Assembly: GCA_040285855.1 (NCBI GenBank) | Contig: JAUFOQ010000005.1 | Coordinates: 1,922,001 to 1,986,000, forward strand | Direction of reading: 5' to 3' | DNA length: 64,000 nucleotides | Origin: Eukaryota sp. GEM-RC1 | Taxonomy: Eukaryota | Part shown: positions 2,236 through 56,754 of the stretch, piece by piece | How positions within the stretch are numbered: the first letter of the stretch is position 1 | How the letters are laid out: each line of letters begins with the position of its first letter | Position numbers and translations under genes: made by a program | Notes under the pieces: model-generated | Database searches by the model: none | Told to the model about the DNA's origin: nothing | Seen by the model: only the letters and a program-made list of their open reading frames with translations

Positions 2236-5230
2236 CAGTGTTGTCAAATGCGCACTATTTCCAGAAATGAAATGCGTCAAAATGCGCCAAATGCGCGCAT
2301 TTCTGCACATTTTGATTTCGAACTTGAGACACCCCATAAATAAAATTCTTTTCGTCATACTGATAGATGTCCTCGTAATTCTCTATATTCCATGCCCGTT
2401 TCGAGATGTATCTAAATCCCACATTATTGGGCATCACGGTCCAATTGTATACCAACCTCCTTCCAAAAGTTCTGTTGTATCAGAAGCTACAGTTCATTGT
2501 CATCATTGTGTCCACCAGTCCGTCACTGGATCTAATCGATTGAAACAACACTTTGTACCGGGGACGACGTAGTGTTTTCTTGTTCAAAACTCGTTGCAAG
2601 TCTTTAAGCTGAGTTGGGAGCGAAATCGCACATCCTCCTCTCATTGACCAATCTCATTGAACAACTGTTACCGTTAATCACATACTCTATACAGACAATG
2701 TGTTTCAACTTTCAGGACAAACAGTGGACGTGTGTGGCTTAATAAGTGGTCTTTACACCATATTTTATTCAGTATTTTATACGATATTAACCGTTTATGG
2801 TTTTGTATCCATTTACATTGTTCGTTAGTATGGGTAAAACAGATGTTTGATCAAAAGTTTTGCCGCTAACTTCATAGATTTTAAACCAATTCATTGTGAT
2901 ATCAAAAGAATGTTCATTGAATTGTATGCAGTACAACTTTGCATTTGTCCAACGAAAGAGGGACTGCATAACACTGTTTTAAGATCAACATCACTGTTAT
3001 TTGGTTATACCGACTTATACAGAAGCACAACAAAAAAAATTGGGAAATCGTCAATTTACATCACATAAGTAAATAACAATTCATTTAACATCAATACTCT
3101 TTTGCTAATGACTACAACTAATACAACTCTTCAACAAGGTCATTCTTATACAAACATCCAACACTTGCAGCATGATGTTTACTCTTGGTTCCTTTCGAGT
3201 GATAAAAGCTTCGACATAACTCAGAAAAACCAGAACCGTTGGGATATACGATGTGGCTCCTCTACACCTTGTCCCTGTTACATCCACTGTTTTCAGGACA
3301 CAGACACCCACGAATGGGAAATAAGAAAGTTTGTCGATCACATTGCTTCCTGCCAATCCTTATGTTTTACGACCTTGCCGAAACAAATCTGTGCCATTTT
3401 AATGGCAGAAGAAGTGAGAGGTGGAAAGATTACCAGACCATCTGTATTTGCTAAGAAGCTGAAAACCAAGTACTTTATTGATATAAGTCCGAGCAAAGCC
3501 TGTCGAGCTCTAGAGGCCACTAACGAACTACTTTATGGTTCGTTAGATACATCATACACCTTTCTGGAACCCTTTTTCCAAAGTCTCAACTCCACTAATC
3601 CCAACTCTCCTTTTAAGCTGAATGTTGCACCTGATGGCACATTTGAGCGCTTTTTTCTTTACTTTTCAACCTCTTGTGAAAGGATTTGAGTTTTTAAGGC
3701 CTGTTATCGTGATAGATGGAACTCATCTGAGGTCCAAATACAAGGGAACATTGTTGGCTGCTGCTGGCATTGATGCCAACGGACATTTCTTTCCTATAGC
3801 TTTTGAAATTACTCGAACGGAAAATGTAATAAATTGGAGAAGCTTTTTGGAGAATTTGAATGACAATTTTGCAATCAACGACAAAACAGTATTTATTAGT
3901 GACAGAAATCCAGCCATATCCCGTACGCTCGTCGAAGTTTTTGGTGAAGAAACTTACCACTCTGTTTGCTGTAAACATCTCAGTGACAATCTCTCGTCCA
4001 GAGGTGGAAAGAAAGCAATGAAATTGTTTTGGAAATGTGCAAGAGCTAGTACGTTAATCGAATTTAACCGCTATTGGCAGCTCCTTCAAATCCAGTGCCC
4101 AATGGGTTATACTTATTTGGAAGAGTCAGCTCCGAAAGAATCTTGGTCGACAGTACACTTTGAAGGGAATAGATATGGACAACTCACCTCCAATATCATT
4201 GAATCCTTAAATGCATGGCTTCTTCCAGTTCGCTCTTTGCCAGTGACTTCAATGGTTAACGGTATCTTTGAAGCAATGACTGATTTGTTCAGAAGAAGAA
4301 AAGATGAATCACTGAAGATGCATGGAGAATTCGTTGATGATGTTGAAGAGTATTTGTTGCCGTCGATATTGAGAGCTCGCAGTTTAGAAGTAACCACGTT
4401 CTCCGACAGTTTGTTTTCCGTGAGAGAAAACGAATTTGTGTTTTCTGTGGATCTGAAGTACAAAACGTGCAGTTGCGGATTCTGGAAACAACATGATGTG
4501 CCATGTATTCACGTAATGGCAGTTTCGAGACGTGTTAGAATTCACCCCAGATCTTTAGTCTCTCCCTACTATTTAGTTACTAATTTTAAGAAGACGTATG
4601 ATGGCGAATTTTATCCAATCGATTATAGAAGGAATATCTAAGAACTAGAAAGTGATGTGTTTCCTCCTTTAGATACAGTAATGCCAGGTCGTCCGCCAAT
4701 TTCACGTAAGGACAAGTACTCACGTACTAAACGCTTTAATCAAAGGGATTCGATGAGAAGGATGCGAGTAGCGACAGTGAAGAAGTAGAACCTGACGCAG
4801 CAGCAACGGAAGAGAATCAGGAAGGAATGCCTCTCTCCCCACGTAGATGTGGTCATTGTAGAATTATTGGGCACGACAGAAGAAACTGCCCAGAGTGGAT
4901 TGTGTTGCAGCAAGGTGCCAGCAGTATGATACCAACAGTAGTAGATGGTTCAGCACCAAGACCACGACAACGTAAGTGTAGAAATTGTGACCAAGTTGGT
5001 CATGACAGGAGAAACTGTCCAACGAAATAGGTTTTATGAGTTGAAACAATGATTGCAAAATAAAGTAATATTAGATGAAAAATGCAATTAATGTATATTA
5101 GTGATGAAATCTGTATAAATCCCAAAAAAATTCCAAAAAAAAATCTCAAAGTCAAAATGCGCAAGATCACAAAATCCCAAATGCGTAAAAGGCGTCAAAA
5201 TTGACGCATTTCTGAAAATTGATAACACTG
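2236..5230 (+). mobile_element. DNA transposon carrying a MULE transposase, bounded by short CAGTGTT terminal inverted repeats
   Basis: Left end CAGTGTTGTCAAAT; right end reverse complement CAGTGTTATCAATT (12/14). Subterminal AAATGCG repeats at both ends. No TSD seen. Confidence 0.7.
3102..5030 (+). pseudogene. Mutator/MULE transposase with SWIM and two CCHC zinc knuckles, disrupted
   Basis: Motifs IDGTHL, FISDR, CCKHL, TSNIIESLN; SWIM CSCGFWKQHDVPCIH; PGRPP; CGHCRIIGHDRRNC and CRNCDQVGHDRRNC. Frameshift near 3680, in-frame TAA at 4639-4641 and a further frameshift before 4827. Confidence 0.9.
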
Positions 5231-13697: not shown

Positions 13698-16600
13698 ATG
13701 GACTCCACCTCCATCAATTCAATGTATGCTTCCTTCCCCATAATCTCAGTCGACGTACATATTCAAACACAAAGGAATCTTTTTTCCGCGTTGCCTTCCA
13801 TATATCCAATCACAAACGACGCGATTTTCTCTCACTTCTTCTTGTCACTCTTCAGTTTCTACAGATAATTGGTTTAGTCATAAATCCTCTTCTGACTGAA
13901 TGGCATTCTATTTTTGATCCACGGTCATTCCTTAGTCTGTTAACGATTCCTGTCTACTACAAGTCCTATGATCTACCTATTCTTCTGTATGGCTACTTTT
14001 CCTCAGCTGTAGTTCTAATAGTCTTGGCACTTTTCTTATACTTCACACACATTTCCTTTATCCCAGATTCTGCCTTATCCCGCACCCTCTCCTTCTTATA
14101 CCATTCCTTATCCACCGTCTTATTCCTTCCTACAGCCTCCATCCTACTCTCATCTCTGTCATGCCAGTCCAAACACAACTCCTTATTCTCCTTTGGCTTT
14201 CCCACTGACCAGTGTTGGGCTTTTCCCTCAATCCTCTCAAGATCTCTCTTCTTCATCTCCCTTCTACTCCTCTATCATTATGGTATGTTCTTTAATCGCT
14301 GCTTGTACCCATTTAGTCCTCTTTGTAAAAAGGTTTGGTGTAGAAGTCACTCGAAATTCAATGTATTTTTATTCCATTCGAAGGTGAGTTTATTGCTAAT
14401 TAGATTTCTACTTCCACAGCGACAGTATCTTTTTCATTTCTCTTACATGACTCTTTCTATCGTTATTACTTTACTGTTCTCTCTCTATGTTCCATTCTAT
14501 CAACTGAGGTCCAATAGAAAGTTTTCCTTTTTGTGTGGAATTTGGTGTGGTGTTGGAATCCCATGGTTTCTTCATGTTTACTTCCTCCCATCCATACCTC
14601 TCCTTAATACCCTAATGTTTCTGTTTTCCATGTTGAGTGGGGGTTTAATTGCTTCGTACATTGCAGTTAAAAGATATAACTACTTCACTTCCTTTGTTAA
14701 AAAATCAAGATCACCCAAGTTTGAACGCCGTTCTTCCTTCCTTCACCAGATACACTCCCCACGGCATCTTGTTTCCAGCTCCCTCTAACTCTCTGGGGCT
14801 TGATATTTCCATCTTTATTCCTGATTTTGGTAGTGATGCAACTAGTGCAATTACGGAGGTGGAAGAGATGCCTGATCCTAAGTGGATATTTGTGATTGAG
14901 CTGTATACACGTTTTCTCTTTCCTAAACCGGAGAATTCTCCTTTTAAAGAGCTAGGATGTGTTGTTTTTGAGCGATGTAAGGAGAAATATCCTGAAAATC
15001 CGGATTTTCTATTATTGTGGACTATTTTTGATGTATTTGTAAGAAATAATGTCAAGCACAAAATTTATTCACATTTTAAAAATTCAGATATTGAAGCTTC
15101 TTTCTTTCAAAAATATTTGGCATATGCAATACAAGCTCAAATTTCTTCGATTAGGGAAGTTATTGAAATTTCCACTCCACGTGAGGGTCAAAATCAATCT
15201 GATCTTCTATCAAAATTGAAGGAGGCTTATGATCTACACGAAAAATGCCTTCTGTTTATGTTCTGTTTTTGGGATTCAATATTTACTGATAATTCAAATA
15301 TTCGATTGCTTCCAGAATTAGCTGAAAAATTAAATTTAGCCATCGCTGATGCTGAAAGTGTATTTGACTTTTTGCTGTGTAATTACCCTGAAAACAAAGA
15401 TGTATTAAAAGCATTTGCAAAGTTTGCAAAAGATGTACTTGAGGACGGAGAATTGGCAATGTTTTATATGGAACAGTTAGATTATGCAGATGCCAGTGAA
15501 AACTCTAGCGTAACCTCTCTTGTTCGAAATTTTAAAAATTCTGAAAATTATCATTTTTTATCTCAACACCGACAAAAGAAGAAATCTCAAAAACTGAAAA
15601 TACGGCGGTCAAAATCAGTCGTCAGACGATCTAGGTATGGGGTTCATGCTTTTTTTAATTTTGTTTTCCATAATTGGTTTGATTTGTTGGGGGTCTGTTG
15701 AAATTAATCTGCTTAAATATGATTCTAAAATCCAAACGTTTGTATCAAGCAATGATTTGTTTGCAATCTTGAATCAGGTTCCTTCCTATTTCACTGGTCT
15801 TATACACTACGATAATTATTTAAAAAATTACAACAATTTTTCAAGTTTTTCAAAATTTGCCATGAACTCTACTATTTCTCTGCCCAATCTAATCAATGAC
15901 GTTTTTCTTTATACCTTTCAAAAGCCTCCAGTGTTGTCTGAATTGTTTCCAAGATCTCTATCTGATTTATGTGTACTTAGCTCCTTCAAAGCCAATCTAG
16001 TTTTATTTGCACCCGTATCTTCCTACCCTACCATGTTCACTCCTAGCTCTACTTCCTTTTGGCATTTAATCATCACTGTTCTTCGAGCCGCCACTAACTT
16101 CTTTGATAAGTTTTCATTTTACAAGAATCTTATTTCCCAGTGCTCACCTCTTGACCAGCCCAGTAGTCTCTTCTGTATCTCTCTCAATGCTTTAATTGAT
16201 AACATTAATGCTCTTAATTCTGGAGCCAATCAATTTCGTATGATGACGTTAACTTCCCTTGAAAAGATACTGAGGGATTTAGTGTTTGTTCCTGTTGTTA
16301 GTTTGGTGTCTTGTCTAGTGTTGTTCTGTTTATGTTTGGTGTTTTTCAAGGTGCTTTCTTATAGGTCAACTAAAATGAGAGTTCAAATTTTAAATTTGTA
16401 TGCGGAAATTTCGAGATTATGGTTGCAACGGTTGCTAGTCGATCCAAAATTCGCTGCAGTTTCGCGTAATTTTAAAAATGTCGAACTCAAGTCTAGTGCT
16501 ACTGAACTTCTTTCGCTAGATGATATTCAAAACATTTGTTCAGAAGATTTATACAGCTTTCGGTCAGATTTAACTTATTCTGAGTCTTCAAGTATGAATT

Positions 16601-19082
16601 ATAGTGACTCTGATGTTGTCTTTACGTTAACGTTCAAAAGCTTGCGATATTCTTTAACACGTCGTCATTGTTGGATGTTTTGGCTGTGTCTATCTTTTTG
16701 GTTTCCTTTTATACTATTATTTTGGTGATATTTTTTGTTCCATCTTTGTCATCTCCTTTATGTTTGCAAATTCAACGTATTTCTGATCAATTTGATATGC
16801 ATCATGATATTTCAAATATTTTGACAGAATCTGTCAAAATGTTTTCTTCTACAATGTCGTTCTATAATACTGGGGATATTTCCTTTTTTCAAAACTATTT
16901 TCAAATAAGAGAAAAAAACTCAGTCAAAATCTTTACTGAGAATTACTCCCGTTTGATCTCTACTTTTAATTCAACTGCTGATTTGTTTCGATTGTTTCCT
17001 ATCAGAGGTCAAATATCGCATATAGAACATGTAATTCTCTTTTGAGTTCCAAACGATTCAACATTTCCAAAGATTATATACCACAAATTTCAAATTTTTC
17101 ATATGATATTTACCAAGAAACGCATCGCGTTTCCACTCTATATTCTTACGTTCATTCATTTTACTACAATTCGTCTTCTACTGATCAACTTCTTTCATCG
17201 TCTGACTTTAGTCTACTGGTTTCTGAACTCGTGACTGGAAAAAGATTTCTAATGTTGTTATCTGAGTTTTCCCAAACTTGTTACGACATCTTTTCAAATT
17301 TCTTTGTTTTTAAGAATTCCAAATACCTTCCGTTTTTGAATCAATTAGAATTTAATTCTTTGTTTTTGATTGTTTCATTTGTAGTTCTGCTATTCTTCTT
17401 TTCTTTTCTTCGTATATCCCTAAGCAAAATTCGATCTTTTCAAAACATGAAGTTTATTGTCAAGTTTTTACTCTACTTCTCTCTAGTTACCACCTTCATT
17501 TTACTTGCTTTAGCCATCACTTCTTTAGTTGTGATTCGTAAGTCTCAAGATATTGTATCTGATGCTAATCAGTTTGTTCTACTGTCAACTGAATTGCAAC
17601 AGTGTTTTCATGATTTAAGATTCCAGTCACAACAATACGTGTTATCAAGAGATATCAAGTTTCTCTACGGATTTATGACCGATTTTGAGCGAATCAATAA
17701 TATTCTCACCAAATATTCGACATTTTTCAAAAATCCAAATGATACTAAATTCAAAACATTTTCGCAGTACTTGAATGAATATTTCCACATTCATTTTATT
17801 TCATTTAAAATATTTGCACATGCTACAAATCAACCTGATTTATTGAATCATTTCCAATTATTCAATACTTTAATTTGGAATTTTAAAACTGATTCATTTT
17901 TCTTTTTTTTTCAAGGACGTTGTATTTCAAACTGATCACCAGCTACCCCTATTTAATACTACTGACTATGATTTACACCATCGATCATCTAAAGAGCAAT
18001 TGGTCATATCTAAATTCCTTTTATTTGGCCCAATTATTAGTCAATCATCAAATGAGTTAAATGAGCTTATTTCGGCTCTCAAAATCAGTTATCAGAATGA
18101 ATTACTTACAAAATTTAAATTTCTCTCAAATTTGTTCAGCTACTTAGGCTTAGCTACTTCTGTTCTGACGTTAGTACTCACCACAATCTTTCTTGGTATT
18201 CTATCACTTTCTCTCTATGTTTCCAGGCGAATGACGTTTACAAACGACTCACCATTTGAACCAGTTACCCACAAGAATATCACAACCAATTCATTTTTAA
18301 AATCAGTGTCAATATCGACTTTGATTATCGTTTTGTTTTTCGTGTTTTACATCATATTTATTCTTCTTAATGTTTCTTCAATCAAAGATTATCCATTTGA
18401 ATTGAAGCAAGTTTCCCAACGAAGTTCTTTAATCGCAACAGTCAATGGAATTCTGATGAGCCTTACTACTCACTCGTATACTGCCCCACAATCACGTCAT
18501 CGATTAAAAGAGCTCATTAATGAACTGAGTGACCTTCATTCTTCTATATTGTTTACCAAATTTGGTCATTTAGAACCTACTGCTGGTCGTTACTTGTATC
18601 AAAACGATATTCTTTTTGATTCAAGATTTAATGATGATTCAGTTGACTTTAATGGACTTCATGCCTCGATCACGAGGTTTATTGAGCTGATGGAGTCTCT
18701 AGTGGCTCAAAATTTTAATAATTTTAATTCTGATCAGCTTATTGAACTTTTTAATTTGGTCCATGGATTGCAAAATTTGTCGAGCGAATCAGTTTCTGTA
18801 TATAAGAATGAAATCGATGAGAGACTTAAATCGTTTATATTATTCAACAGAATTTTAATTTTTGTGTTTTTCATTTTAGTTTTATTGAATTGCTTTTACG
18901 TCTTAAAACATTCACTTTTACAATTGGACAAGGACGAACAAATGAACGTCGACTTAATTCATATGTTTCCAAGTGATGTTATTGATGATTCTAGAATTAT
19001 TCGAACTTTCTTGAAAAAAATTTCAGAAGATAGCAACTTTCCTCACACCTCATCCACAGACTTGATTATCCTTGAGAAGTGA
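13698..19082 (+). CDS. TmcB/TmcC (tiny macrocysts)-like giant multi-pass membrane protein; one intron, several frameshifts
   Basis: N-terminal TM bundle (QFLQIIG, PFYQLRSN), helical region FWDSI..AESVFDFLLCNYPENKDVLKAFAKFAKDVLED, and C-terminal TM pairs ending LIHMFPSDVI. Consecutive same-strand ORFs overlap or abut from 14024 to 19082. Confidence 0.7.
13724..13749 (+). other. 26-nt spliceosomal intron
   Basis: GTATGCTTCCTTCCCCATAATCTCAG. Removal puts the ATG at 13698 in frame (MDSTSINSIRRTYSNTKESFF) with the open frame running to 14788. Confidence 0.75.
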
Positions 19083-19876: not shown

Positions 19877-21677
19877 TCATTGTTTGTCTTTTCCCCAACA
19901 TTTATTTTCCCCGTTCTGTTTTTCAGTTTTTCATCCTCTCTTATGGTTTTGCTGTTATGTCTATATCATACACGGAACATTCATCTAGATCCTGACGGTC
20001 TCAATCCTTTTCGTAGAACATACTCTGCTGTTCATCTCAATAAAGGCGTATCTGATCCGGTGAAGTTCTTATCTTACTTTCACGTCTGAACTTTTCGTGA
20101 ATCTCTGATTCTTCTTTTCATAGTTTTGCGAAAGAAGGCGAGAAACATGATTCAACAGATTTTTATTCGCCATGACCACTTCTGGCGTGTCTTCCATGAT
20201 CTCTCTTGATGAAGTTAAGAGAACCAAAAGTTCTTGTCTTGATTCATACATGTACTGCTACATGTTGAACTTTGTTTCTGCATTTATGTAAAATTAATTT
20301 CAAGTGATCTTAAGCTTATGACTTGCACTTCCAACAAAAAAGAATGGCAAGCTTTGACTGTTTATCTCTTTCTTCCAACACTTATATATCCCAAATTTAT
20401 CACCATCACTAAACAATCTTCACAAGAACTGCCCGCAACAACACAGGTCTTCAATTGTTGTCAGATTGGCTTGCTGCCACCTCTCCCTTAATAATCCTTC
20501 TTCCGCACAACATGTACTGGATCCGTTACTTCGGTGATTTGTTGTGAATACCAGATCCATAGGACTTCATCCCATCAGTTCTCTGGTCTTTGATCATGAC
20601 GAATTCCTCGACGGACAAGAGGACGTACTGATCCATGAAGAAGAAGAGGAGCTCCTTGACAGTGTTCTAAAGTTGTCCCTTGTTGATGGTCTTGAAATGG
20701 AAGACCTTCTTATGAACATCTCCCCCTGATGATGTCTGTAACTGCTGGTTTTGAAGTTGTAGCCTTTCCCCTTTCCTATATTGGTGCTTTCAGGTCCGTC
20801 CTTGACCTTTCTCGCTCTTATATCGCCCTCTCCGTTAACACTAGTTCTCTCCTTCTCTCATCCATCCATTTAGCAGATATGTGAGAGATTATTGGTATTT
20901 GCTGATGATTGAGTGTTTAGCAATATTTTTCCTCAATCCCACCACTTAAATTTGGACGAAGATTACCCGTAGTGGTACATCCGTACCATCTTCAATTCAT
21001 CACAATAGTCATAGTTTGTTGGTTTATTTATCATAAAAAGCTAGTTACCAAACCAGTAGTATCTCCCTCTACTCGTCAATAATATTTGATTGTTTTGATT
21101 GATTGGCGAGTGAAGAAAGTCTTGGTCACTTCTCGGTTGTTTCAATGTTAGTTATTGAACAACTTATGTTTATTTCTAAAAAAAATTAAGATTATATTCA
21201 AGCAATATCTTCAAAAATAACTGGAATGACTCGACAAACACATGATATACATCATAGAGGCTCTGGAAATACTCTAGAGGAACACTGGACTCAAAATCTC
21301 GTTTAATTCTCTTGTTTAATTAATTCTGTCAAGAGATTCCTGTGGAGTCACATCAAGGAATATAATGCTGTTTCTCTTTCTCATAAAATTAGCCATGTTG
21401 TTAAACAAGCGGAGATAGGTTTCGCAGCCATGTTATTCCAAGAGTCCTGAGTCTGAGAGCATTTTGGCAAAGACGGAGTCCTTATAGATTGTTCAGTCTC
21501 TAATGGAACCACTGATGGAGCCGAAAGATGCCGAACTGAATACCATAGCAATTAAAAACCATCTCAACTACTCAGCAACTGGTGTCCACAGATGGTAATT
21601 TACAAATACACTATAGAACAAACGATTGTGATAGAGGTTACATAAAATACATCAAATTCTTCAATTATTTAACTTTG

Positions 21678-23509
21678 ATGACTGTCGCCAAAAAAACCAC
21701 TGTCGCGTCATCTATTTCCCGTTTCTTCGGAGTGCCAGCTCAAAAAGCCATGGAGCGGCAGTTCCGCCACGTCAGAACAGTTGCTGTCCAGAGCACCCTC
21801 CTTGCTCGACTGTTCGTGCTCCAGCACAAACACTTGGCGTACTGGCTGACTGAACATCAGTACTGGTACCAGTGTTTTGACTTTGTTTGTCTAGATCCGT
21901 CCTCCCCGACGATGCCAGTACGGGAACCTTTTAGTGAGCACACTGAGGTGTTCAATGCTCTTTTAAATTCTACAGACCGTCCAGGCTGGCCGTTCCCTCC
22001 TATTGGCCGGGACAAACCCCCATGCAAGGAACGGAGGTGTCCCATCAACTGGGCATACTCGGACCTATTTAGTGCAAGAGCACTTCAACTTGCAGCTGCC
22101 TTTCAGCAGCTGATGACGGATGGCTTGGTTAGTTGGAAGCTTAACTTCTTTCGAACCACAGCTACCTACTGTCTTTGTCCCTCTCCAAAGCAGTACGCTT
22201 CTCTTGTTCTACGTGGCTCTGAGCCACCGCAATCTCTTCTTCCTTGGTGGACCACTTGGCACCACCAGATTGTTGACATCTTCAACAATCAAGTTATGGA
22301 CCCAGAACGAGTGGATGCCCTTTTGACCACTCCAATGACTGACTTAACTCCGTCCAATGTCAACTTCATCTTTGAAGTTGCATTTAATCTTCTCCTCCAC
22401 TTGGAGAGGGTTGAACCCACCAGAATGCGTCGGCAGGCTCTTACGCCCATGGCATCTTATTCACCTGGCTTTCTTCCCTTCAGCCAGGCTACTCAAAAAC
22501 ATTTCCAAAATTATAATACTCGAAAGGTTTTATTAAAAAATCCACATGATGTTTTTAGAAAGAAGAAATTTGAGACTTATACAATTTCCTCTGATGGAGT
22601 CTCATTGAGATTCACTTTCTCAATGAAGCCTAAAAAAGACTAAAAGAGGCGAACAAAGGCCGAGTTGGAGCTGGTGGAGAAACCTGCTCAACGGCCTTCA
22701 AAGACAAGAAAAAGGAAGAAGAACCTTCAAAGTAAGGTTGTCCGTTCTCCTCCTAAGAAGAAGAAGAAATCTGAGGTGTCTGAAGTACTACCACTTCTGG
22801 ATGAAAGTGTTTTATTTTGGGCTATTGACCCCAACCACAGCAATCTGTGTGGTTGGTCGGTGGGTTCACTTAATGGCCCAGTTGAAGCCTCTGGGATTTG
22901 TTTGTCCCCAAAACCGAAAAAAATTAACCATGCCCCTGCTCTCACTCACACAACAGCGAATACTTGTATCGTTGAGAACTTTAAACTGTATCTCATCGAA
23001 TTAGCTTCTCACGTTGTGGATGTCCAGATGAGCAAAACTATACTACAAAGACGGTTTATTGAAGGAAACAGACGATCTTTACGACGAAATAATTTCGACT
23101 TCTATATAAGACGACAAAAAGATTCGATTTACTACACCAGAAAATCAATACTATAGCTGATGGCCGGACAATTAGCATCTGGTTTGGCAAAGGCGGAGAT
23201 GGACCATCAAAACAAAAGGTCAAAGCGCCTAGAAAGCGATTCTTGACTTATCTACAAAGATCGCACAATGTGGTGATGGGAGACGAGTTTTATACTTCAA
23301 AAAAGGTGAACTGCTGTAAGGTTGTCCACTAAAAATTGTATCACATGGTGAATGGCGAGAGGAGAGTGAACAATTCCAAGTTCACATGTCCTCTTTGTTT
23401 GCAAGAATGGTCGCGAGACATCTCAGCATCTCGAAACCAACTAGAGATCGCAATCAGCGAATTCTTCTTCGGGATTAGACCTGAAGCGTTCAGAAGACCT
23501 GAACGTTAG
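21678..23509 (+). pseudogene. Fanzor1 (eukaryotic TnpB/Cas12-like RNA-guided RuvC endonuclease), disrupted
   Basis: ISSDGVSL, RuvC-I WAIDPN, IWFGKG, RuvC-II VVMGDEFYTSKK, zinc finger NCC..CPLC, RuvC-III WSRDISASRN, C-terminal RPEAFRR. In-frame TAA at 22641-22643 and 23330-23332; frameshift at the A-run ~23116-23120. Confidence 0.88.
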
Positions 23510-23621
23510 TGAAGAATATTTCATGTATTGGCCGATGAAGTTCAAGTTACCTTGAATGGAGGCCGTAATGTGGTGCTTCCTCAGAAAAGGGGTGTGTATG
23601 AAGAAGCTTTCTTTGAAAGTG
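23510..23621 (+). ncRNA. Candidate Fanzor omegaRNA scaffold
   Basis: Lies between the Fanzor stop and the candidate right end. Hairpins TTCAAG-ttac-CTTGAA (23541-23556) enclosed by GGCC/GGCC, and CTTTC-ttt-GAAAG (23607-23619). Positional inference; expression not shown. Confidence 0.45.
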
Positions 23622-23652
23622 TAAAGTATCCATTTCTTGAAAAATCCACAGT

Positions 23653-25599
23653 ATGAACACACCATCTAAAAAACCCAGAGGACGGCGTCCTTCTAACAGT
23701 AGGCCTGTTCCTGGATCTAAACAGACACCTTCTTCTGTTCCAAAAGACAGTCCTCATCTTCGTCGAACCAATTCCATTATCAACATCGAAAAGGCACCCA
23801 CAAAACCTGTCAATCAGCTAAACTTACCACCTCAAGAACTGGAAAATGACATTCAACGTGTTCTAACCACCGAAAATCCCAACGCCCTTTCTAATACAGT
23901 TGAGTTTAGCCGCTCTGTACACGATGGTCATCCTCTCAATGCCTACGTCAACGTCTCCACCAATTCTTCCATGGAAACATTCTTCTCTCTAACAGGCCCC
24001 TTGCTCTCAACTCTTCCTAAACAACAAGAACAATCAAATCCCTCAAAGAACCAGTTTAACTACATTGACCGAGGTAACCAGACTCTCCCTTACTTCCACC
24101 CCAAACACGATGCCGCCACGTCAGCAGCTGAAACACGTCGCACTGTCTTTAGTGGATCTGTCTCAAATGGATTTATAGTGGACGCATATGAACATCACTT
24201 AAATCCTCAAGTCCCAGATAGTAAGAGCACTAAACAAGAAGCTTTGGGGCGATCCTCTTTAATAGCTGAACGAATGGTTCTTCAGAACATTAATTCTGAG
24301 ATCATTTCTGACTTCCAATCATTTGACCATCAAGCTGACCTTGTTGATCCCACTGTCGCATCACTCCTTCCTCTTTGGAAACTTTCCGCTTTCGGTAAGT
24401 CTGATGATCTGCCCAAGAGCAAATCACTCAGAACAGTGACCTCCATGGCCTGGAATCCTCTTCATCCCGATCTTGTTGCAGTCTCACTAGGGTCGTTTGA
24501 TTTCTCTATTCAAGGAGGTGGTGCTGTTTTACTTTTTTCATTAAAGAGTCCGCATTTCCCATTGTCAATTGAAAGACTAGACTCAGGTGTTTTGTCATTG
24601 GATTGGAATGCTGAGGAGCCGTGGCTTTTAGGGACAGGATTGTATGACGGTCGGGTGATGGTATTTGATTGTCATGATGTGGGGTCAATCAAAGTCTTGG
24701 CAAAGTCTACAGCTGTGACTGGAAAACATTATGATTGCTGCTGGCAAGTGCAATGGCTACCACCAATCAAAAATGATGAGGATGATTTCGTCTGCCAAAA
24801 GCTATTATCAATCGGAAATGATGGAAGAGTTCTTTCATGGGAGTTGACTAGAAATCAGTCAAAATGGTTGCCAAAGATATTCTCCACTTAACCGATGCAG
24901 ATGGAGCTTCTCTATTGTTTTCTTGTTTTGAACTTTGTCCTTTTGATCCAAGGATCTTTCTATTAGGAACTGAGAGCGGACGTTTGTATAAGTGCTCGTT
25001 GTCTAGTCAGACGCCGTTGTTTCCAGTATCAATCACATGAACTTGCCGTTTACGCTACTAGATGGTCTCCTTTCAATCAAACTGCGTTTTTGACCTGTTC
25101 AGCTGATTGGTCGGTCAGATTATATTCCTTAACTTCTGCAAATCCACTGTTATCATTGAATCTTGGTGGTTCTGTTACTGACATTCATTGGTCACCACTT
25201 AGTTCAACTATCTTTGCGGCTTCAGTATTGAATGGAACAATGATGGCTTTTGATTTGGCAAAATGTTCGTTTGCTCCGATTTCGAAACAGATAGTTTCTG
25301 AAAAGGGCAAGTTGTCGTGTCTTAGATTTAATCAGCATCATCCAATCATTTTGATTGGTGATGATAGAGGCAACTGTCACGTCATGAAGTTGTCTCCTAA
25401 TTTGAGACCTGATGTTGTTTCTGCTTTTACTAAGACTTCAAGTACTAATATTAAAGTAGCTCTGACTCTTGAGGAATTAGCTTTAATGTCTGGTGACCTA
25501 GATCAGAATGATGACGATTCGGTTTCCGTTGAGAACAAAGTACGTCGTGCACAGGAAGAAGAGTTGAGGAAAGTCATGGTTGCTGCTGGTAATTCTTGA
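23653..25599 (+). CDS. DNAI1: Axonemal outer-arm dynein intermediate chain 1 (IC78-like, WD40); two apparent frameshifts
   Basis: NQFNYIDRGNQT, ERMVLQN, LLPLWK, FLLGTESGRLYKCS, HELAVYATRWSPF, TCSADWSVRLY, GDDRG..KLSPNLR. Frame changes near 24860 and 25022. Confidence 0.88.
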
Positions 25600-26742: not shown

Positions 26743-27294
26743 TAGGGCTGCCAATGGGAGATGGGAGTTTCTCCCACTCCCAACACGTGTTCTCCCACTA
26801 CCACTCCCACCTCCCACTTGGTCATAGGTGAGACTCCCACTCCCACTCCCACTCCCAACAAATTCTCCCAACTCCCACCCAACTCCCATTTGGTTCAGGG
26901 TCTTCAGCAGCTTCATAAAGTCGTTCTGACAGTATTTGGACTTCATAATCTTCAGATAAATCAAGCGATGACATTGGTTGAAATTTACAGATGAACAACC
27001 ACACTCTTTATAAAACGAAAATAAATAAAATACCAAAACAAAAACAGTAAAAATGTAATACACTTAGTCCTATTAATATTCTAGAAAAATTATAACTGTA
27101 TTTGTCTAGCTAGCTTGTTTCTGTCTTAAAATTGAAGTTAGAGTTGTGTCTGCAAATGGGAGATGGGAGTTTTTGGGAGTTCCCACCTCCCAAAGAAGAG
27201 CTCCCACTCCTACTCCCAAAAATTGCTACTGAAGCTCCCACTCCCACTCCCAAGGGTCATGGGAGATGGGAGTTGGGAGAAATTGACAGCCCTA
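26743..27294. mobile_element. hAT-type MITE with CTCCCA/TGGGAG subterminal arrays
   Basis: TIR TAGGGCTG..CAGCCCTA and many CTCCCA(CT) repeats at both ends. No TSD found. Confidence 0.75.
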
Positions 27295-30845: not shown

Positions 30846-32275
30846 TCAATAATACCATTGATACAATTCCAAATTTTGTACTGGATAACTTCTTCCAATG
30901 CTTAAAATCTTTAAACTCCTCCAAGACCTAACCCTACTTAAGGTCACATAAAGTTGGGCATATTCCCAAAACTGGATAGCAACTTCAATCCCGTCAATTG
31001 TTAAACCTTGGGATCGATGCACTGTTATTGCCCAGCAAGGTCTTAGCGGAAACTGAATTCTTTTCGCCACTTGAACAGGTCTTCCGATTTCGTTCAAGTG
31101 TTCGATAGCAAACCTTGACTGACTGATTCTTTTTGGTTCTGCTTCAGTGTTGAACCTAACATCAATATATGAATCTGAAAAATTAACAATAACTCCTTTT
31201 GAACCATTAACTAGTCCAAGTTCAGGCTTATTTTGAGTGTACATCACTTGTCCACCCACAACGCAGTCTAGTTTTTTTTTCAGCAAAGTCATCCAAGCGA
31301 CTTGTCAGGACCGAAGTTTCAATGTCATAATATTTTTCCAAATTAGATTCATTGACTGGAAATCTAGAACTTCTTTTTCTAATTTAAGATTCTAATTCAG
31401 ATTCATTGAATTTGTCAACAGCTACAAATTCAATTGAATCTGAATTTTGGCCAGAATTTTGTATTGTTTTAAATTTTCTCTAGCAACATCAGTATTCCTT
31501 CCGTATAAAATTGTTGGTTTTCAACAGATTCTGCTGTTTCGAAATGAGTACGCAGAATTGATTTCATAAAATTATCTAGTAGACCCAATCTCAATTGATT
31601 TAGAAAATTAAAAAATTGTGAGTCTGATTGCAGCCGAATACTTCCAGCCAGTTCACAATATTTAAAATTTAAACTGTTCCAAGCTCTTGATGAAAAAGCG
31701 AAATCAGAAATTATCACTTTTCGATTTCCTTTTCCATCAAGACTTTTCACAACAGGGGCTAATTGAAGAAAGTCCCCAAAACAAATTATCTGAATTCCTC
31801 CAAATGGTTTCTTCGGGAAGTGACATTTTTGCGTGTGCATAAGTTCGCTCAAAATGTCACTCGCTCGTTGAAACAATTTGGAGGACAACATTGAAATTTC
31901 ATTAATGATTAACATTGAATTATTTGGAGTAATTTTTTTTAACAAAATTTTGACATTTGATGGCATACATTTAATAACATCATGAATGAATTCTTCTTCT
32001 TTCATAAACTTATAACCAAACAGTGAGTGTATGGTCTGTCCACCAAAAACAGTTGATGCAACCCCAGTTGTTGCAGTGAAAAAGATTTCACCATTAGCAC
32101 GCATGAGACGAGATCCGACGTTACTCCACCAGTTTTTGAGTGCATGTAAAAGATAAGATTTTCCTGATCCTGCACCGCCAGTGACAAAGAAGTTGCGTCT
32201 GCTGGTAGTGATTGCGTTAAAGATCTCACGTTGGTCATCTGTGAGATTGATGTTGTGTATAGTGGTTGGTGGCAT
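30846..32275 (-). pseudogene. PIF1-family SF1B DNA helicase, disrupted
   Basis: Walker A GGAGSGKS, TATTGVAS, GQTIHS, Walker B altered to INEISM, FGGIQIICFGDFLQLAPV, LVNGSKG, QFPLRPCWAITVHRSQGLT, YVTLSR. Broken between 31292 and 31469. Confidence 0.9.
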
Positions 32276-32458
32276 TGAGTTGATGGATTGTTTGAGCGCA
32301 GGGAAACTTGGTCTTCATCAAATTTCTCTTTCACTTCAAACTATGACTTTATCCAGGGACTGTATTTCAATGGGAAAATATCAGAAATGTCCACGCACAT
32401 CTCGCCTATCAAAAATGCCCACATTGTACGATGCTTTATTCGACAGTTACTTGTACTT

Positions 32459-33106
32459 CTATACCTCATCTAAACATCCATTAAGAACCTCGTTTGCATT
32501 ATCGATGGATCTTTCCTCATCATCGTAATCTACAAGATGAACTTCTTCCATTTCGACCTCGTCTCTCTCTTGATCACATACTGCTAACCAACTATCTGCT
32601 TTTGTCATTCTTGCTTGTTTAGCTTTCTTGGGGAAGACTCCGTTTCTCTTCTTTTGACGTGTTCCAGGAGTCTTCTGAATAAGAGAAGGATTGATTGTAG
32701 GATACTGATTTCTCTTGTTCCACTCTTTTACGGGTGGGATGATAGGTAGTCTGCCTTCGTTGGTTTTTTTGTAGTTAACCAAAGAGTGGAACTCGTCAAT
32801 AGCTTCCAAAGATCTCATTTTTATCTTTAAATAAACAGCAAGAGTGTGGCAGTATCGATAGCCTTTCTTTTGCCATCCATTACATGTAAAAGTGTTTTCA
32901 TGTTTGTTAACAATAAAATGGACATCATTCTTACCAACTACTTCATAAATATCGTCGTTTGACCCAAAAGTTTTGAACGTTCGAGCCAAAATCATTTCTT
33001 TTGGGCTCCAGACATTTCCTGTTTCATATGTTCGACAATATCTCGGGGGCATATAAATTGTTAGCACGGTGTTTACTAACAATATTGGGCAGCTCAGGAT
33101 ATGCAA
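32459..33106 (-). pseudogene. MULE transposase C-terminal fragment with degenerate SWIM zinc finger
   Basis: NTFTCNGWQKKGYRYCHTLAV (consensus CxCxxWQxxGxPCxH), then FHSLVNYKKT and a basic PGTRQKKR segment. Confidence 0.65.
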
Positions 33107-38693: not shown

Positions 38694-39893
38694 TTATTGA
38701 AACAATGATCGTCGACTGTTAGTGGTTTGACTATCTTTCAATCTGATAAAGAGAGCAGCATTTGAGAGATAAGGAGACCTGTAATATCGGTGTTGCCTCC
38801 ATCCAGCCTTGTCAAACAATCTCCGGCATTCGTAATACATTTTGGACTCCGTCAGTCGCTTTACAAAAGCCAGATGATCTACATTAGCTCTGTCCTGGAA
38901 ATGAAACTCATCTCTTAACTTCCTCTTCAAAATGCCGAAAAATAATTCGATTGGATTGCTCTCAGGGCAATATGGAGGCAAACCGAAGTACTCGATACCA
39001 CATTTTCTCAAACCTTCTGAAATAGCCTCATGAATATGGATTCGACATCCATCAAGTATAATTTTACTATGGGTTGCTCCAGCAGCACCCAAATAGCCTC
39101 CTTGAATCAGCCCAAATAAAAAGTTAACAAAGTCTTTTCGATCAAAATGTCCGTACTGAGCTTCACAATATATGAAACCATCCATACCAATAGCCACACA
39201 GAGACTTATTTGAAAGTGTTGCATTTGACCAAGTTCTCGGTCAATTTGCACCCCTGCCGGTGAGTATCCATAAGTTCGTTCATAGTCTTCGATTCTAAAC
39301 GATACTTCGTCAATAAACACAAGTTGACTTTGTATAACAATTCCGACACGGTTGTTCCACATACACTCAAATTTTGTGATGAGCTGTATACGAGCTCTCC
39401 TCACAAGGGCAACACATCGTTTGCGAGTATAATTAAGCGAAGCTATAGCTCTCTGGATAGTTGAAACCGAAACGTCTTTATTTCTATGAATAGAGATCAG
39501 ACCTACAATTTCCCTGAGATACAAAGGAGGATCTGCATCAAGAACAGATTTAATAAAAGATTTATCATCAGAATCGAGTACACCTACGTTACCAGAGGTC
39601 TTATACGAATCTTTGTCCTCAAAAGCGGAAGATATCCAACGGGATATCGTAGATTGTTTTACATTAAAGAAGAATGCAACCTCTTCTTGGGTTTTGTTTA
39701 ACCAGAAGTAAGTATAGACAGCTCTGGTTTTCGTATCTTCAGAGGCGTTGACTGAGCGTTTGTGAAACTTCCGTATCTGGATGATTTCTTGAATTCCGTT
39801 CAAAATATTTACCACCCAGATTCTAGTCTTGTTCATTCTTCCTTCAACATCCCATGTAGATATGTCCACGCTATGGATATTTGATTGACCCAT
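38694..39893 (-). CDS. IS630/Tc1-mariner superfamily DD34E transposase, intact ORF
   Basis: HTH TQEEVAFFFNVKQSTISRW, second HTH VSVSTIQR, LVFIDE, ILDGCRIH and LPPYCPESNPIE, with 34 residues between the second D and E. Candidate terminus ..TTTTGACTG|TA at 40029. Confidence 0.93.
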   Translation of the reverse strand: MGQSNIHSVDISTWDVEGRMNKTRIWVVNILNGIQEIIQIRKFHKRSVNASEDTKTRAVYTYFWLNKTQEEVAFFFNVKQSTISRWISSAFEDKDSYKTSGNVGVLDSDDKSFIKSVLDADPPLYLREIVGLISIHRNKDVSVSTIQRAIASLNYTRKRCVALVRRARIQLITKFECMWNNRVGIVIQSQLVFIDEVSFRIEDYERTYGYSPAGVQIDRELGQMQHFQISLCVAIGMDGFIYCEAQYGHFDRKDFVNFLFGLIQGGYLGAAGATHSKIILDGCRIHIHEAISEGLRKCGIEYFGLPPYCPESNPIELFFGILKRKLRDEFHFQDRANVDHLAFVKRLTESKMYYECRRLFDKAGWRQHRYYRSPYLSNAALFIRLKDSQTTNSRRSLFQ

Positions 39894-44016: not shown

Positions 44017-45489
44017 CTAAGCTTTTTTCAACACTTGTTTCTTAATAGACAATGAAATCAAAACCCCAATAAGCAAGAAACAACTCATTATAACAAACGA
44101 CAAGCTTCCCACTCCCAAATCCTCTAAAACTCCATAAACAGTTGGTCCTAGAAATCCAGCAAACGCCGTTCCAGTGAAAACAAACGGATAAACAAAAGAA
44201 AAGTTAATTTCGCTAAAGATTTCATTAACACAGACTGGTAACGCAACGTAAACAGCCCCGTAACATGAAGCAATAACAAACGCAATTATTAACAGGACAT
44301 ATGGGAATCCTGATAACGTAATAAAAACAATCAAAGAAACTGCTTGCGTAGCTAGAATTAAAGTTAAAGTATTAGGAGCTCCGATTAGATCGGCAACTTG
44401 CCCTAAAAGGATTCTAACAATACCATTTCCAAGATTAAAGGAGACAGCAGTCGCCATTAAAGTCCACATCTTTGCTTCCTCTGAAGAAAATCCTCGTTCT
44501 AAAAGCTTTTTTTCAGGGAGAATTCTGAGAGCTCCCAAAATCATGAAACCCGCTGAACTAGCTATTACCAGAGTGAAGAAACATTGCCAAAAGTTAGTCA
44601 TTTTTAATAAACTTTTGAGATACAATCGCTCTTCAGTTGATTGATTAGAAATGATAGGTTCAATTTCCCTCTCAGAAATGACAGAAAACCTTCTAGAACA
44701 AGCATCAGAGTCAGACTCGAGCTCCTCGTCTATCTCCTTCATTCGAGTTTTCTCCACCACCACATCAATCATTGATAACTCTGACAAGGCTGACATCACT
44801 GATGCACTTTTTTGAATTGAAGGTATCTCATTGTCATCAACAATTGGCTCCAACTCTTTTGATTCCTTCTTATGATGACGTGTGTTTGTCTTCTCATCAG
44901 TCTTGGTCACCATGAAAAGACCAGCAAGAAAGATTATCAATGGAGCTGTTAGAGAGAAGACCCGAAACAAAACTTGAGGAGAGTTGGTTTTTAAAATTTG
45001 TTCAACTAGAAATGACCATATCAATGATCCACTGCCAAACATACCTGCCACAAGGCCAGAAATAGCTCCTTTCTTGTTGGGAAAATAAGTGAGGCAGATC
45101 TTGAGAGCAACTATATAGGAGATTCCCACACTGCCTGCCACAAATAGACCAAGACCTAAGGCGATGCTGATGAAGGAAACACCACCAGCAAAGGAAGCAA
45201 TTGTGTAACCAAAGAACATCAATAAGCTGGAGCATGTGGTGAGGAATCTGAAGCTGTAGAACTTAAGGAGAAAAGGAGCAAGCATGGGAGCTAAGCCCTC
45301 AACAATTTGAACACAAGACCAGACAGCTTGAGTTTCTTTGGTCGTCCAGTCATACTGAGAGGTCAGAAAAGGAATTATAGTGGGAAAAGAATAGTTGACT
45401 CCAAGGGATATCTGAATGAGCGCGGAAGCGATGATGACAACGGAGCGATTGTCAGTGAGAAATGTTCGTAATCTGTGATCGGAAAGCAT
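44017..45489 (-). CDS. MFS transporter, oxalate:formate antiporter (OFA)-like, copy 1
   Basis: 490 aa, 6+6 TM layout, YFPNKKGAISGLV, NLGNGIVRILLGQVADLIG. Confidence 0.9.
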   Translation of the reverse strand: MLSDHRLRTFLTDNRSVVIIASALIQISLGVNYSFPTIIPFLTSQYDWTTKETQAVWSCVQIVEGLAPMLAPFLLKFYSFRFLTTCSSLLMFFGYTIASFAGGVSFISIALGLGLFVAGSVGISYIVALKICLTYFPNKKGAISGLVAGMFGSGSLIWSFLVEQILKTNSPQVLFRVFSLTAPLIIFLAGLFMVTKTDEKTNTRHHKKESKELEPIVDDNEIPSIQKSASVMSALSELSMIDVVVEKTRMKEIDEELESDSDACSRRFSVISEREIEPIISNQSTEERLYLKSLLKMTNFWQCFFTLVIASSAGFMILGALRILPEKKLLERGFSSEEAKMWTLMATAVSFNLGNGIVRILLGQVADLIGAPNTLTLILATQAVSLIVFITLSGFPYVLLIIAFVIASCYGAVYVALPVCVNEIFSEINFSFVYPFVFTGTAFAGFLGPTVYGVLEDLGVGSLSFVIMSCFLLIGVLISLSIKKQVLKKA

Positions 45490-50502: not shown

Positions 50503-51977
50503 ATGCTTTCCGAACAGAGATTACGAACAGTTCTCACTGACAATCGCTCCGTTGTCATCATCGCTTCCTTGTTCATTCAGATATCCCTTGGAGTCAACTA
50601 TTCTTTTCCCACTATAATACCTTTTCTGACCTCTCAGTATGACTGGACGACCAAAGAAACTCAAGCTGTCTGGTCTTGTGTTACTATTGTTGTTGGCCTA
50701 GCTCCCATGCTTGCGTCTTTTCTCCTTAAGTTCTACAGCTTCAGATTCCTCACCACATGCACCAGCTTATTGATGTTCTTTGGTTACACAATTGCTTCCC
50801 TTTGCTGGTGGTGTTTCCTTCATCAACATCGCCTTGGGTCTTGGTCTATTTGTGGCAGGCAGTGTGGGAATCTCCTATCTAGTTGCTCTCAAGATCTGTC
50901 TCACTTACTTCCCAAACAAGAAAGGAGCAATTTCTGGCCTCGTTGTAGGTACGTTTGGTAGTGGATCACTGATTTGGTCATTCTTAGTTGAACAAATCTT
51001 AAAGAACAACTCTCCTCAAGTTTTGTTCCGGGTTTTCTCTTTAACAGCTCCATTGATAATCTTTCTTGCTGGACTCTTCATGGTGACCAAGACTGATGAG
51101 AAGACAAACACACGTCATTATAAGAAGGAATCAAAAGAGTTGGAGCCAATTGTTGAAGACAATGAAATTCCTTCAATTCAAAAAAAGTGCATCAGTGATG
51201 TCAGCCTTGTCAGAGTTATCAATGATTGATGTGGTGGTGGAGAAAACTCGAATGAAGGAGATAGATGAGGAGCTCGAGTCTGACTCTGATGCTTGTTCTA
51301 GAAGGTTGTCTGTCATTTCTGAGAGGGAAATTGAACCTATCATTTCTAATCAATCAACTGAAGAGCGATTGTATCTCAAAAGTTTATTAAAAATGACTAA
51401 CTTTTGGCAATGTTTCTTCACTCTGGTAATTGCTAGTTCAGCTGGTTTCATGATCTTGGGAGCTCTCAGAATTCTCCCTGAAAAAAAGCTTTTAGAACGA
51501 GGATTTTCCCCAGAAGAAGCAAAGATGTGGACTTTAATGGCGACTGCCGTCTCCTTTAATCTTGGAAATGGTATTGGTAGAATCCTTTTAGGGCAAGTTG
51601 CCGATCTAATCGGAGCTCCTAATACTTTAACTCTAATTCTAGCTACTCAGGCTGTTTCTTTGATTGTTTTTATCACGTTATCAGGATTCCCTTATGTCCT
51701 GTTAATAATAGCATTTGTTATTGCTTCATGTTACGGGGCTGTTTATGTTGCATTACCAGTCTGTGTTAATGAAATCTTTAGCGAAATTAACTTTTCTTTT
51801 GTTTATCCGTTTGTTTTCACTGGAACGGCGTTTGCAGGATTTCTAGGACCAACGGTTTATGGAGTTTTAGAGGATTTGGGAGTGGGAAGCTTGTCGTTTG
51901 TTATAATGAGTTGTTTCTTGGTTATTGGGGTTTTGATTTCATTATCTATTAAGAAACAAGTATTGAAAAAAGCTTAG
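50503..51977 (+). CDS. MFS OFA-like transporter, copy 2, with two +1 frameshifts (pseudogene or assembly error)
   Basis: Near-identical to copies 1 and 3. One extra base in the C-run at ~50800 and in the A-run at ~51180. Confidence 0.85.
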
Positions 51978-54876: not shown

Positions 54877-56754
54877 GTATAATTGACCAGCAAACACCGA
54901 TGTCGAGTGTTGCTCTCATTTACTGCAGGCATTATCATCAGTTAAAGGTCCTTAAGAGCTGATAAAAAAATTCAAGAAATACAAATACAAATACACTGTT
55001 CCAGAAAAAATATAATACAAAAATTACAGAATACAAATAATACTGTACTTTGTATTTTGCAAATATGGTATTGAATAATATCATAATTTTGGATACATTT
55101 GTTAAAGATCATTATAAGAGATCTATACACACTTTGTAACACCTTTGTCTAACACAGATGCAATTTTGATTCCCGATATTTGGCACACATTGAGCACATG
55201 CATCAAGCAAATAATGCATCATCTTGCACACACTTGCATTGTTATATATCTGAGCGATATTTGAGAACTAACAAAATTCTAGAGGTTTACGGTTTCTTCT
55301 TTGATTAAATAAACTGTTCTGGTAAGTGTTCTATTTTTTTAGCTTTGTTTTTATTTGACAAACTCAGGTGCAGGTAAGAACTAAGCGCTATATTCAATAT
55401 CATCAAAGTCCAAATTTCGCATATAAAACTGGACTTAACATTTCATCACAATGCCTTCCACAAGATAAACAATGGTAAGAAACAGAGGACAACACACCTC
55501 TAAGAATTGAATTGAGAATACAATTCTACTATTTGAAAATCTGAGATCAAAAGATACATGTATTGTTTTGAAGAATTAAACTCTCAAAATCACAATGCTT
55601 TTGTTTTTCCACGTTTTGGAATTTTTTTGTACGATAAATTACTCTAGGTACTGCAGCTAATAATTTTCTTGTGACCGTTTAAGAATTCGTGTAATGATTT
55701 CGGTAAAATGTTCACCGGTGGTTTTTGGAGAGATCGTCTGTATATCGTTTTATTAACAATTACTTTGTTGATATCTTGAAGAGTTTGTTTGGTGATGGAG
55801 AAGAGTGTGTAATGGGGTAGATTTATCTGTCTATTTGATGTTCCTTAGTGTAGATATATAGGATAAAGCATTTCTTTATAAATCCACAGTTAAATTAAGT
55901 GTCAATTTTTTTCTTTATTGTTTTTTGGAAACAACAACACTAAGATAAGCACAAATACTAGAACTCAATATCATTAACAACATTGCCATTAAAACTCAAA
56001 TCAGCTAATTTCTTCATAAAAAACACTGAGAGCTAGCAGAGCTTTTCAAATCATGATAGGAATTGATTTAAATATTGTAAAAACAATACGATTCAACCAA
56101 AACTGGAAATCAAATTTCTTGTTCATTCTTTGGAGCAAGGGACCTTAAAAGAAGAGTAATTTTACAAGAATAACAAATTTTGAGCATGAAGAATTTTAAG
56201 TGTTTTTCCATTTCTAAGAACTTTTATCTTATCCAACTCTTGTTGAATCGAAATCAAGTAGTCATCAAGGTTTTTGACAATATACTACTTCTAGCCAAAA
56301 AGACAACCAAGAAATTTGAAACTTGAAGTACAATAATTAATGAAGGGGACTTCAATTGAACGAATTGTTAATAACTTTGGTTCTTTACCTATAGCAAAAC
56401 ATTTTTAAATATTTAAATTTAAACCAATCTAAAGACTAATTATACAAGAAATCTTTCTTCATAATTTTTTTGGAATTGGATCTTTCCACAAGGCAACGTA
56501 ATCAACATTATACATTTGGATCAGCTCAAAACCATGAGCAATCAATCTCTTCCTCGGTCAAGAACTTTCCTGAGTTAGGTTCAGTACTCATAATACCAAT
56601 ACAAATATTCTCTAAAGGCATGGAGTTGACAATGTTGAAGAAGACGCGGTCCCAAGCGTCTATGTGGGATGATCTACAGGAAGAAATTCCATCTTCGATC
56701 TTCTAATGGTAGTTCCATTAAAGGTGAACCTTCTTTGGTGACACCACTTTTGAC

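Follow-up and report, generated by a model that had tools for sequence, protein, structure and literature searches.

Does the short stretch between a Fanzor gene and the dynein gene DNAI1 in Eukaryota sp. GEM-RC1 encode an omegaRNA whose guide is taken from the upstream region of DNAI1, and does this matter to the dynein gene? Here we analyse the stretch (23510-23652) in its context of 64,000 bp of contig JAUFOQ010000005.1 (the window, to which all positions refer). The best overall explanation, to which we assign a probability of roughly two in three, is that it represents the omegaRNA-coding right end of a Fanzor1 transposon of ~2.0 kb that inserted by chance. The tail behind the Fanzor gene is likely the right end and omegaRNA template of a dead but recently active element.

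A broken Fanzor1 gene from a multi-copy family

The gene upstream of the tail (21678-23509, plus strand) is a Fanzor1 pseudogene with the RuvC residues D (AIDPN, 22827), E (23285) and D (23417), a variant zinc finger, and a TAG stop codon at 23507-23509. Its pieces carry the same catalytic residues as its relatives and also SDG, a WED-type motif. The original prediction had the gene as a Fanzor, which agrees with our assignment, and was silent on its broken reading frame, which contains three lesions (TAA at 22641-22643, a frameshift at the A run 23116-23120, and TAA at 23330-23332). With two in-frame TAA codons and one frameshift, the locus lacks the intact ORF of an active Fanzor nuclease, and the local copy, as read from the assembled sequence, makes no nuclease. 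Both stops are substitutions, and a sister protein has Q at the second of them; a reading of TAA as glutamine was ruled out, since the standard code leaves long host ORFs open. The frameshift lies in a base run and could be an artefact of assembly, because single-base breaks are also found in DNAI1 and in one transporter copy, and related assemblies are nanopore-based.

The assignment to the Fanzor1 family is based on kept motifs and on a structural model of a relative. The AlphaFold model of P0108 (pLDDT 78.6), a protein that is 35% identical to the sister protein P0038 and stands in for the window copy, was compared using Foldseek and matched SpuFz1 best (E 2e-13), followed by PpFz1 (9e-13), GtFz1 (1e-8) and, at only 4e-3, Fanzor2. 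PF07282 scored above cut-off in P0038; PDB sequence searches matched no Fanzor. The motif given by Bao and Jurka, D-X(125,275)-[TS][TS]-xx-zinc finger-X(5,50)-RD, is present, with a D-to-TS spacing of 153-172 in all ten relatives examined and RD after CxxC. Yoon et al. specify DPG at RuvC-I and a glutamate six residues before the first CxxC; the family has DPN and carries the glutamate in the rearranged position, but its first cysteine pair is xCC or xCH, which leaves the strict pattern unmatched. AIDPN, GDE-x-x-TS and CxxC...RD are kept in 10/10 relatives, and full-length relatives have [TS][DN]G, a TDG-like WED motif, at about residue 290.

The window protein (with X at the stops) is 62% identical to relatives from Eukaryota sp. 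TZLM1-RC and 50% identical to those from TZLM3-RCL; organism labels of the TZLM and GEM-RC1 type are assigned to the free-living metamonad Skoliomonas (10.1101/2023.05.03.539051), the lineage from which the window thus probably derives. The cluster mates P0038 and P0039, both with the label GEM-RC1, are 97-98% identical to the window protein. The former is without two stretches of 10 and 44 residues and the latter is truncated, and no clearly intact member of the subfamily was seen. The Fanzor clusters in related genomes comprise 41, 14, 10, 9 and 6 members, and that of the window subfamily comprises 3; many cluster members are unbroken (592-605 residues), among them P0108 (596 residues), which belongs to another subfamily and has the same organism label as the sisters. 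Going by these sequences, the family is multi-copy and mobile-looking in Skoliomonas-like metamonads. In Skoliomonas-labelled genomes, the clusters of P0008, P0049, P0054, P0108 and P0074 represent five or more Fanzor1 subfamilies that have diverged to 30-40% identity; several of these have numerous unbroken copies of 592-605 aa and the variant xCC/xCH zinc finger.

A metagenome scan for sister loci yielded six distant Fanzor-like loci (27-36% identity), whose tails match the window tail no better than background; scans of viral and prokaryotic collections yielded none, and a second copy of the element was not found within the 64-kb window. Two of the distant metagenomic copies (L002:3301-3560 and L003:1067-1326) have a common 3' tail of ~130 nt and then diverge, at what looks like the right-end boundary of another Fanzor family.

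Candidate element ends and the predicted structure of the tail

The ends of the element were sought among 496 TA-bounded pairs (20900-21680 × 23510-23655). The pair that ranked first combines a candidate target-site duplication at TA 21607-21608 with one at TA 23622-23623 (identity 10/16, terminal run 4); one other pair ties at 10/16, but without a terminal run. The candidate left end is an imperfect inverted repeat, CACTAT... (21609-21624, plus strand), located 69 bp upstream of the Fanzor ATG and 10/16 identical to the reverse complement of the candidate right repeat (23606-23621, plus strand), which includes a terminal hairpin, CTTTC/GAAAG, located by the motif and pair search and by folding. 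The right TA would also end the RNA scaffold, by analogy with other Fanzor1 elements (PMC10711439), and AAATA at 21604-21608 (plus strand) is the candidate target-adjacent motif, a role suggested by the CATA of SpuFz1. An element with these ends measures 2,013 bp and has one ORF.

The right end that had been placed at 23621 (AGTG/TA) is thus the best of 496 pairs, but chance equals its score in 5-20% of trials, namely in 71 of 1455 random region pairs in a narrow geometry (left region 165 bp) and in 116 of 574 in a wide one (left region 780 bp), so that TA/CACT...AGTG/TA is suggestive as a pair of ends. A gapped search for a longer inverted repeat at the ends found none (311 and 318 of 500 controls were as good), and an identity of 10/16 is low for the inverted repeats of a young element. 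On these sequence comparisons, it is on balance probable that the element runs from 21609 to 23621 and is flanked by a TA duplication. A 7-bp direct repeat, TCCACAG (21585 and 23645), was rejected as the duplication; it has no inverted repeat inside and is expected by chance. Left of the element lies a 5'-truncated, stop-ridden deoxynucleoside kinase relic (21205-21513, minus strand; PF01712, E 1e-10), which aligns to residues 88-188 of P0110 and is not part of the element as far as tested. The relic was discarded as proof of the left end, as its homology stops about 95 bp short; P0110 is an intact relative, with 60% identity in the best segment.

Gene models of relatives provide a second approach to the extent of the tail. 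The models P0024, P0032 and P0036 (TZLM1-RC) are without a stop and run on into VFFHVLRTCTRIV(M/L)LLL; they belong to one family (62% protein identity to the window Fanzor) and therefore amount to one comparison. Read in the Fanzor frame past its stops, the window gives RIFHVL and later RNVVLP. Non-coding block A (23519-23530, plus strand) has no mismatches to the back-translation of FHVL, a quality reached at 6 of 127,978 window sites for a block picked after the match was seen, and block B (23564-23584, plus strand) has 4/21 mismatches to the back-translation of RIVMLLL (equalled at 67 of 127,960 sites). Jointly, the blocks were equalled at 7 of 2983 anchored random positions and, with free local alignment, at 15 of 1493. 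In the predicted fold they pair together as the 5' and 3' strands at the base of the main stem; the segment between them has 33 nt in the window and 12 nt in the relative. Paired blocks around a middle of variable length fit, on this sequence comparison, a structured RNA whose tip varies. The short segment of the relative could form a hairpin with one C-G pair exchanged for G-C, but 417 of 5000 permuted peptides were equally compatible with a hairpin. There is thus modest comparative support for a tail that consists of element sequence to at least about 23585; the support from the blocks covers the tail only to about 23587, and any right end must lie between about 23585 and 23652.

The sequence motifs that had been reported for the tail are all in place: GGCC at 23530 and 23561, TTCAAG at 23541, CTTGAA at 23551, CTTTC at 23607, GAAAG at 23615 and AGTG/TA at 23618-23623, with a spacer of 112 nt from the Fanzor stop to 23621 and 31 bp from there to the DNAI1 ATG. 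The claim that they form hairpins holds for the nested one (23529-23565, plus strand), in which GGCC/GGCC surrounds GTTCAAG/CTTGAAT with pair probabilities of 0.91-1.0 for the GGCC and inner stems, and which is the sole stable element in the fold of 23510-23621. It does not extend to CTTTC/GAAAG, which has a 3-nt loop and a probability of about 0.33 in the same stretch, rising to about 0.98 only with the flank. The spacer folds no better than its shuffles (z -1.26), of which 22 of 200 equalled it, the z-score for 23490-23660 is -0.79, and the reverse strand of the spacer does better against its own shuffles (z -3.5) than the forward strand; folding energy alone is therefore no sign of an RNA. 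When the last codons are included (23460-23600), z reaches -3.3 with none of 200 shuffles as good, and a two-hairpin junction is predicted in the last 15 codons and the stop (23461-23517, plus strand), a weak feature, as ORF windows fold too: several 60-nt windows within the Fanzor ORF fold better than any spacer window. The 5' part of the scaffold may, according to this fold, begin inside these last codons (23461-23517). Rfam returned four weak matches, all under the gathering score.

A rather unlikely alternative retains the same element and RNA and places the right end elsewhere in about 23585-23652, for example at TA 23652-23653, which overlaps the DNAI1 ATG. In that case the stem 23587-23599/23626-23638 would belong to the scaffold, DNAI1 coding sequence would provide the guide, and the element would account for the entire proximal promoter of DNAI1. 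This stem has 12 pairs, 23510-23640 folds with a z-score of -2.5, the guide would be largely free of pairing (unpaired 0.73-0.75 in two of three folds), and the TA pair 21648/23652 has 9/16 identity; its terminal run, however, is just 1, five of the 12 stem pairs are G-U, and the folding gain of the native flank was equalled by 31 to 66 of 400 control flanks.

The predicted guide and the DNAI1 gene

For the proposed element ending at 23621, the position of the guide follows from published RNAs. In Spu-1 elements of Spizellomyces punctatus, the RNA is described as a 75-nt scaffold that includes the right repeat, followed by 14-15 nt of flank (PMC10432273); Fanzor1 RNAs are reported to have the target-site duplication inside the scaffold (PMC10711439) and a guide of ~14-15 nt beyond it (PMC10432273). 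With the duplication in the scaffold and guides of this length, the guide here would start at 23624 and comprise about 15 nt of host flank (23624-23638, plus strand), located 15-29 bp upstream of the DNAI1 ATG. A right end within about 23585-23652 implies a guide that overlaps either the region upstream of DNAI1 or the first codons of the gene. The proposed origin of the guide in the DNAI1 5' region would thus hold for any end in this range, but the 20-mer originally put forward gives way to a shorter guide of ~15 nt from 23624.

In the free RNA most of the guide is predicted to pair back on 23587-23599 (mean unpaired 0.31); this guide-scaffold pairing was dismissed as proof of a longer element, as there is no more of it than in control flanks. 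Outside the locus, every window site has at least two mismatches to the first 12 guide bases. At the occupied locus the guide match is preceded by GTGTA, and the left flank has AAATA. For SpuFz1, the motif CATA is reported to consist of left flank plus TA, and any change of the motif to abolish cutting (PMC10432273).

The gene downstream (23653-25599, plus strand) is the axonemal dynein intermediate chain gene that had been named as DNAI1: it matches human DNAI1 with an E-value of 5e-44, and axonemal DNAI1/IC78 matched over both halves of the gene. No introns were seen. The ATG at 23653, 31 bp beyond 23621, is the likely start, since the N-terminal length resembles that of human DNAI1 (query residue 46 aligns with residue 45) and an in-frame TGA precedes it at 23638. 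Two single-base frame breaks in base runs (24861-24864 and 25020-25022) interrupt coding frames that are otherwise stop-free and conserved, and the public gene model ends at the first break (412 aa). A search for a second DNAI1 copy (226-721 aa) found none, and the orthologue search returned only the protein of the window itself. Assembly error is the more likely cause of the breaks than decay.

If the element ends at 23621, DNAI1 would retain the nearest 29-31 bases of its former upstream region, which before the insertion would have extended 93 bp more, to the kinase relic. Related metamonads are described as having short UTRs and small promoters (PMC12209930, PMC7370421), with promoters of 50-60 bp in Giardia (PMC12209930) and an Inr within 30 nt in Trichomonas (PMC7370421). 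By this analogy, the remaining 29-31 bp could be room enough for a start site, and perhaps not for a whole promoter. The earlier conclusion that the element must coexist with, or supply, the promoter of DNAI1 holds only if the DNAI1 copy of the window is expressed. Matches to the trichomonad Inr-like HCAHW at 23630 and 23646 were set aside as too degenerate to count. A 20/22 match between the DNAI1 flank (23631-23652) and an intergenic stretch (55869-55890) is at chance level (score 38; shuffles 33-48).

The events that would link these features can be outlined as follows. A Fanzor1 transposon of ~2.0 kb, probably moved by a transposase encoded elsewhere, would have landed fortuitously at a TA that lies 31 bp upstream of the DNAI1 start codon. 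Its RNA would consist of a scaffold from about 23460-23520 to 23623 and a guide of about 15 nt from the flank. By the Spu-1 mechanism, transcription would continue past the right end, and trimming would leave scaffold and guide, which a Fanzor1 protein would then bind. The complex would cut where the guide match stands immediately after a motif ending in AAATA, as it would in the element-free allele, and would spare the occupied locus (GTGTA) if the motif is longer than TA; repair with the occupied copy as template would bring the element back or spread it. Since the local ORF is dead, the RNA could now act only with protein from another copy, and the locus could at present serve only as a 'ghost' RNA donor. 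The guide match to the DNAI1 upstream region is best read as a by-product of the insertion site, with no sign of dynein regulation.

There is also a small chance that the tail is an inert remnant, an ancestral omegaRNA template that is now neither transcribed nor loaded, next to a DNAI1 gene that is unaffected or has been decaying since the insertion. The two nonsense changes and the frameshift in the Fanzor ORF, the state of the sisters (P0038 gapped, P0039 truncated, no clearly intact subfamily member seen) and the two frame breaks in DNAI1 would all suit such a history. Yet sister proteins that are 97-98% identical indicate a young family, ghost loci without a protein are reported to yield working RNAs in S. 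punctatus (PMC10432273), and the breaks in DNAI1 are single bases in runs within conserved frames without stops, with no second copy found. Domestication, with the guide bringing a non-cutting Fanzor to the DNAI1 promoter as a regulator, has only the position and the precedent of bacterial TldR repressors (PMC10705468) in its favour and is highly improbable, as D-E-D is kept in 10/10 relatives examined, the local lesions are nonsense changes without selective loss of the active site (and not the dead but intact ORF of a TldR-like protein), the left-flank motif is absent at the occupied site (GTGTA vs AAATA), and the insertion looks recent.

Comparison with known systems and genomic context

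The proposed element most resembles Spu-1 and its nuclease SpuFz1 (PMC10432273, PMC3627910; PDB 8gkh, 9ceu). As far as described there, both are elements of ~2 kb (SPu-1: about 2,100 bp; PMC3627910) with a single ORF, a putative TA duplication and a RuvC D-x-N/E/D (D383 and N385 in RuvC-I of SpuFz1; PMC10432273), and both have a structured tail between the stop and the right end and a flank-derived guide, which is predicted here. They differ in the inverted repeats (short and imperfect here, 10/16; 30-33 nt in Spu-1), in the length of the tail (112 nt here; about 75-80 in Spu-1) and in the zinc finger, whose first pair is xCC/xCH here and is preceded by the glutamate at a distance of 8 residues from the first C (6 in the SpuFz1 type). 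Unlike that of SpuFz1, the local ORF is dead, and the RNA here is predicted from sequence. GtFz1 of Guillardia theta is reported to have a longer multi-stem RNA that overlaps the last 17 codons (PMC10432273, PMC11423790); the predicted structure here overlaps the last 15, a likeness of layout. The reRNAs of SfAV and other Fanzor1 elements with TIRs and target-site duplications are described with both of these in the scaffold and a guide about 15 nt beyond (PMC10711439), which is the layout by which the guide was placed at 23624; SfAV differs in being viral, with a duplication of the TTAN type and 13-bp TIRs (PMC3627910). TldRs, TnpB-derived RNA-guided repressors (PMC10705468), are similar in that a guide matches the promoter region of a flagellar gene, and a link of TldR to flagellin is reported (PMC13418256); they differ in being bacterial, nuclease-dead and domesticated, whereas here the catalytic residues are kept in the family and the match is the insertion flank.

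A right-end RNA with a flank-derived guide is already published, and each insertion takes the adjoining DNA as its guide. New is the host lineage: Skoliomonas-like metamonads carry a divergent Fanzor1 group that comprises several subfamilies and has many intact copies; among the matches listed in a literature search, no paper joined Fanzor with metamonads or Skoliomonas. The intact relatives from these soda-lake protists are candidates for nuclease mining. The adjacency to DNAI1 matters only if the element supplies the promoter or spread by cutting the empty allele. An improbable extension combines both: a young Fanzor1 element would sit in the promoter of a single-copy DNAI1, its guide-RNA end would form the upstream part of that promoter, and its RNA would arm the Fanzor of other copies against element-free alleles. 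If true, this would be an RNA-guided drive of natural origin that brought itself to fixation at an essential host gene.

The window is a transposon-rich region. It contains a Mutator-type transposase (3108-4641, plus strand; PF10551), a PIF1-like helicase beside a SWIM-like ORF (31469-33052, minus strand), a cluster of zinc-knuckle (gag-like) ORFs (59446-62256, plus strand) and an open IS630/Tc1-mariner-like DDE transposase of 399 aa (38694-39893, minus strand; PF13358, E 1e-20). The candidate TA-bounded ends of the last element, near 38542 and 39969, are unlike those of the Fanzor element. Three copies of a transporter-like gene (44017-45489, minus strand; 50503-51977 and 56755-58227, plus strand) are 93-99% identical, with one inverted, and one copy has single-base frame breaks in base runs at 50798 and 51180; similar breaks may also explain many split ORFs in 14285-19082. 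The 5' part of a 389-aa ORF and the region upstream have CTCCCA-rich repeats in common (26748-26851 and 27150-27252), and the N-terminus of this ORF may be a repeat element and not protein.
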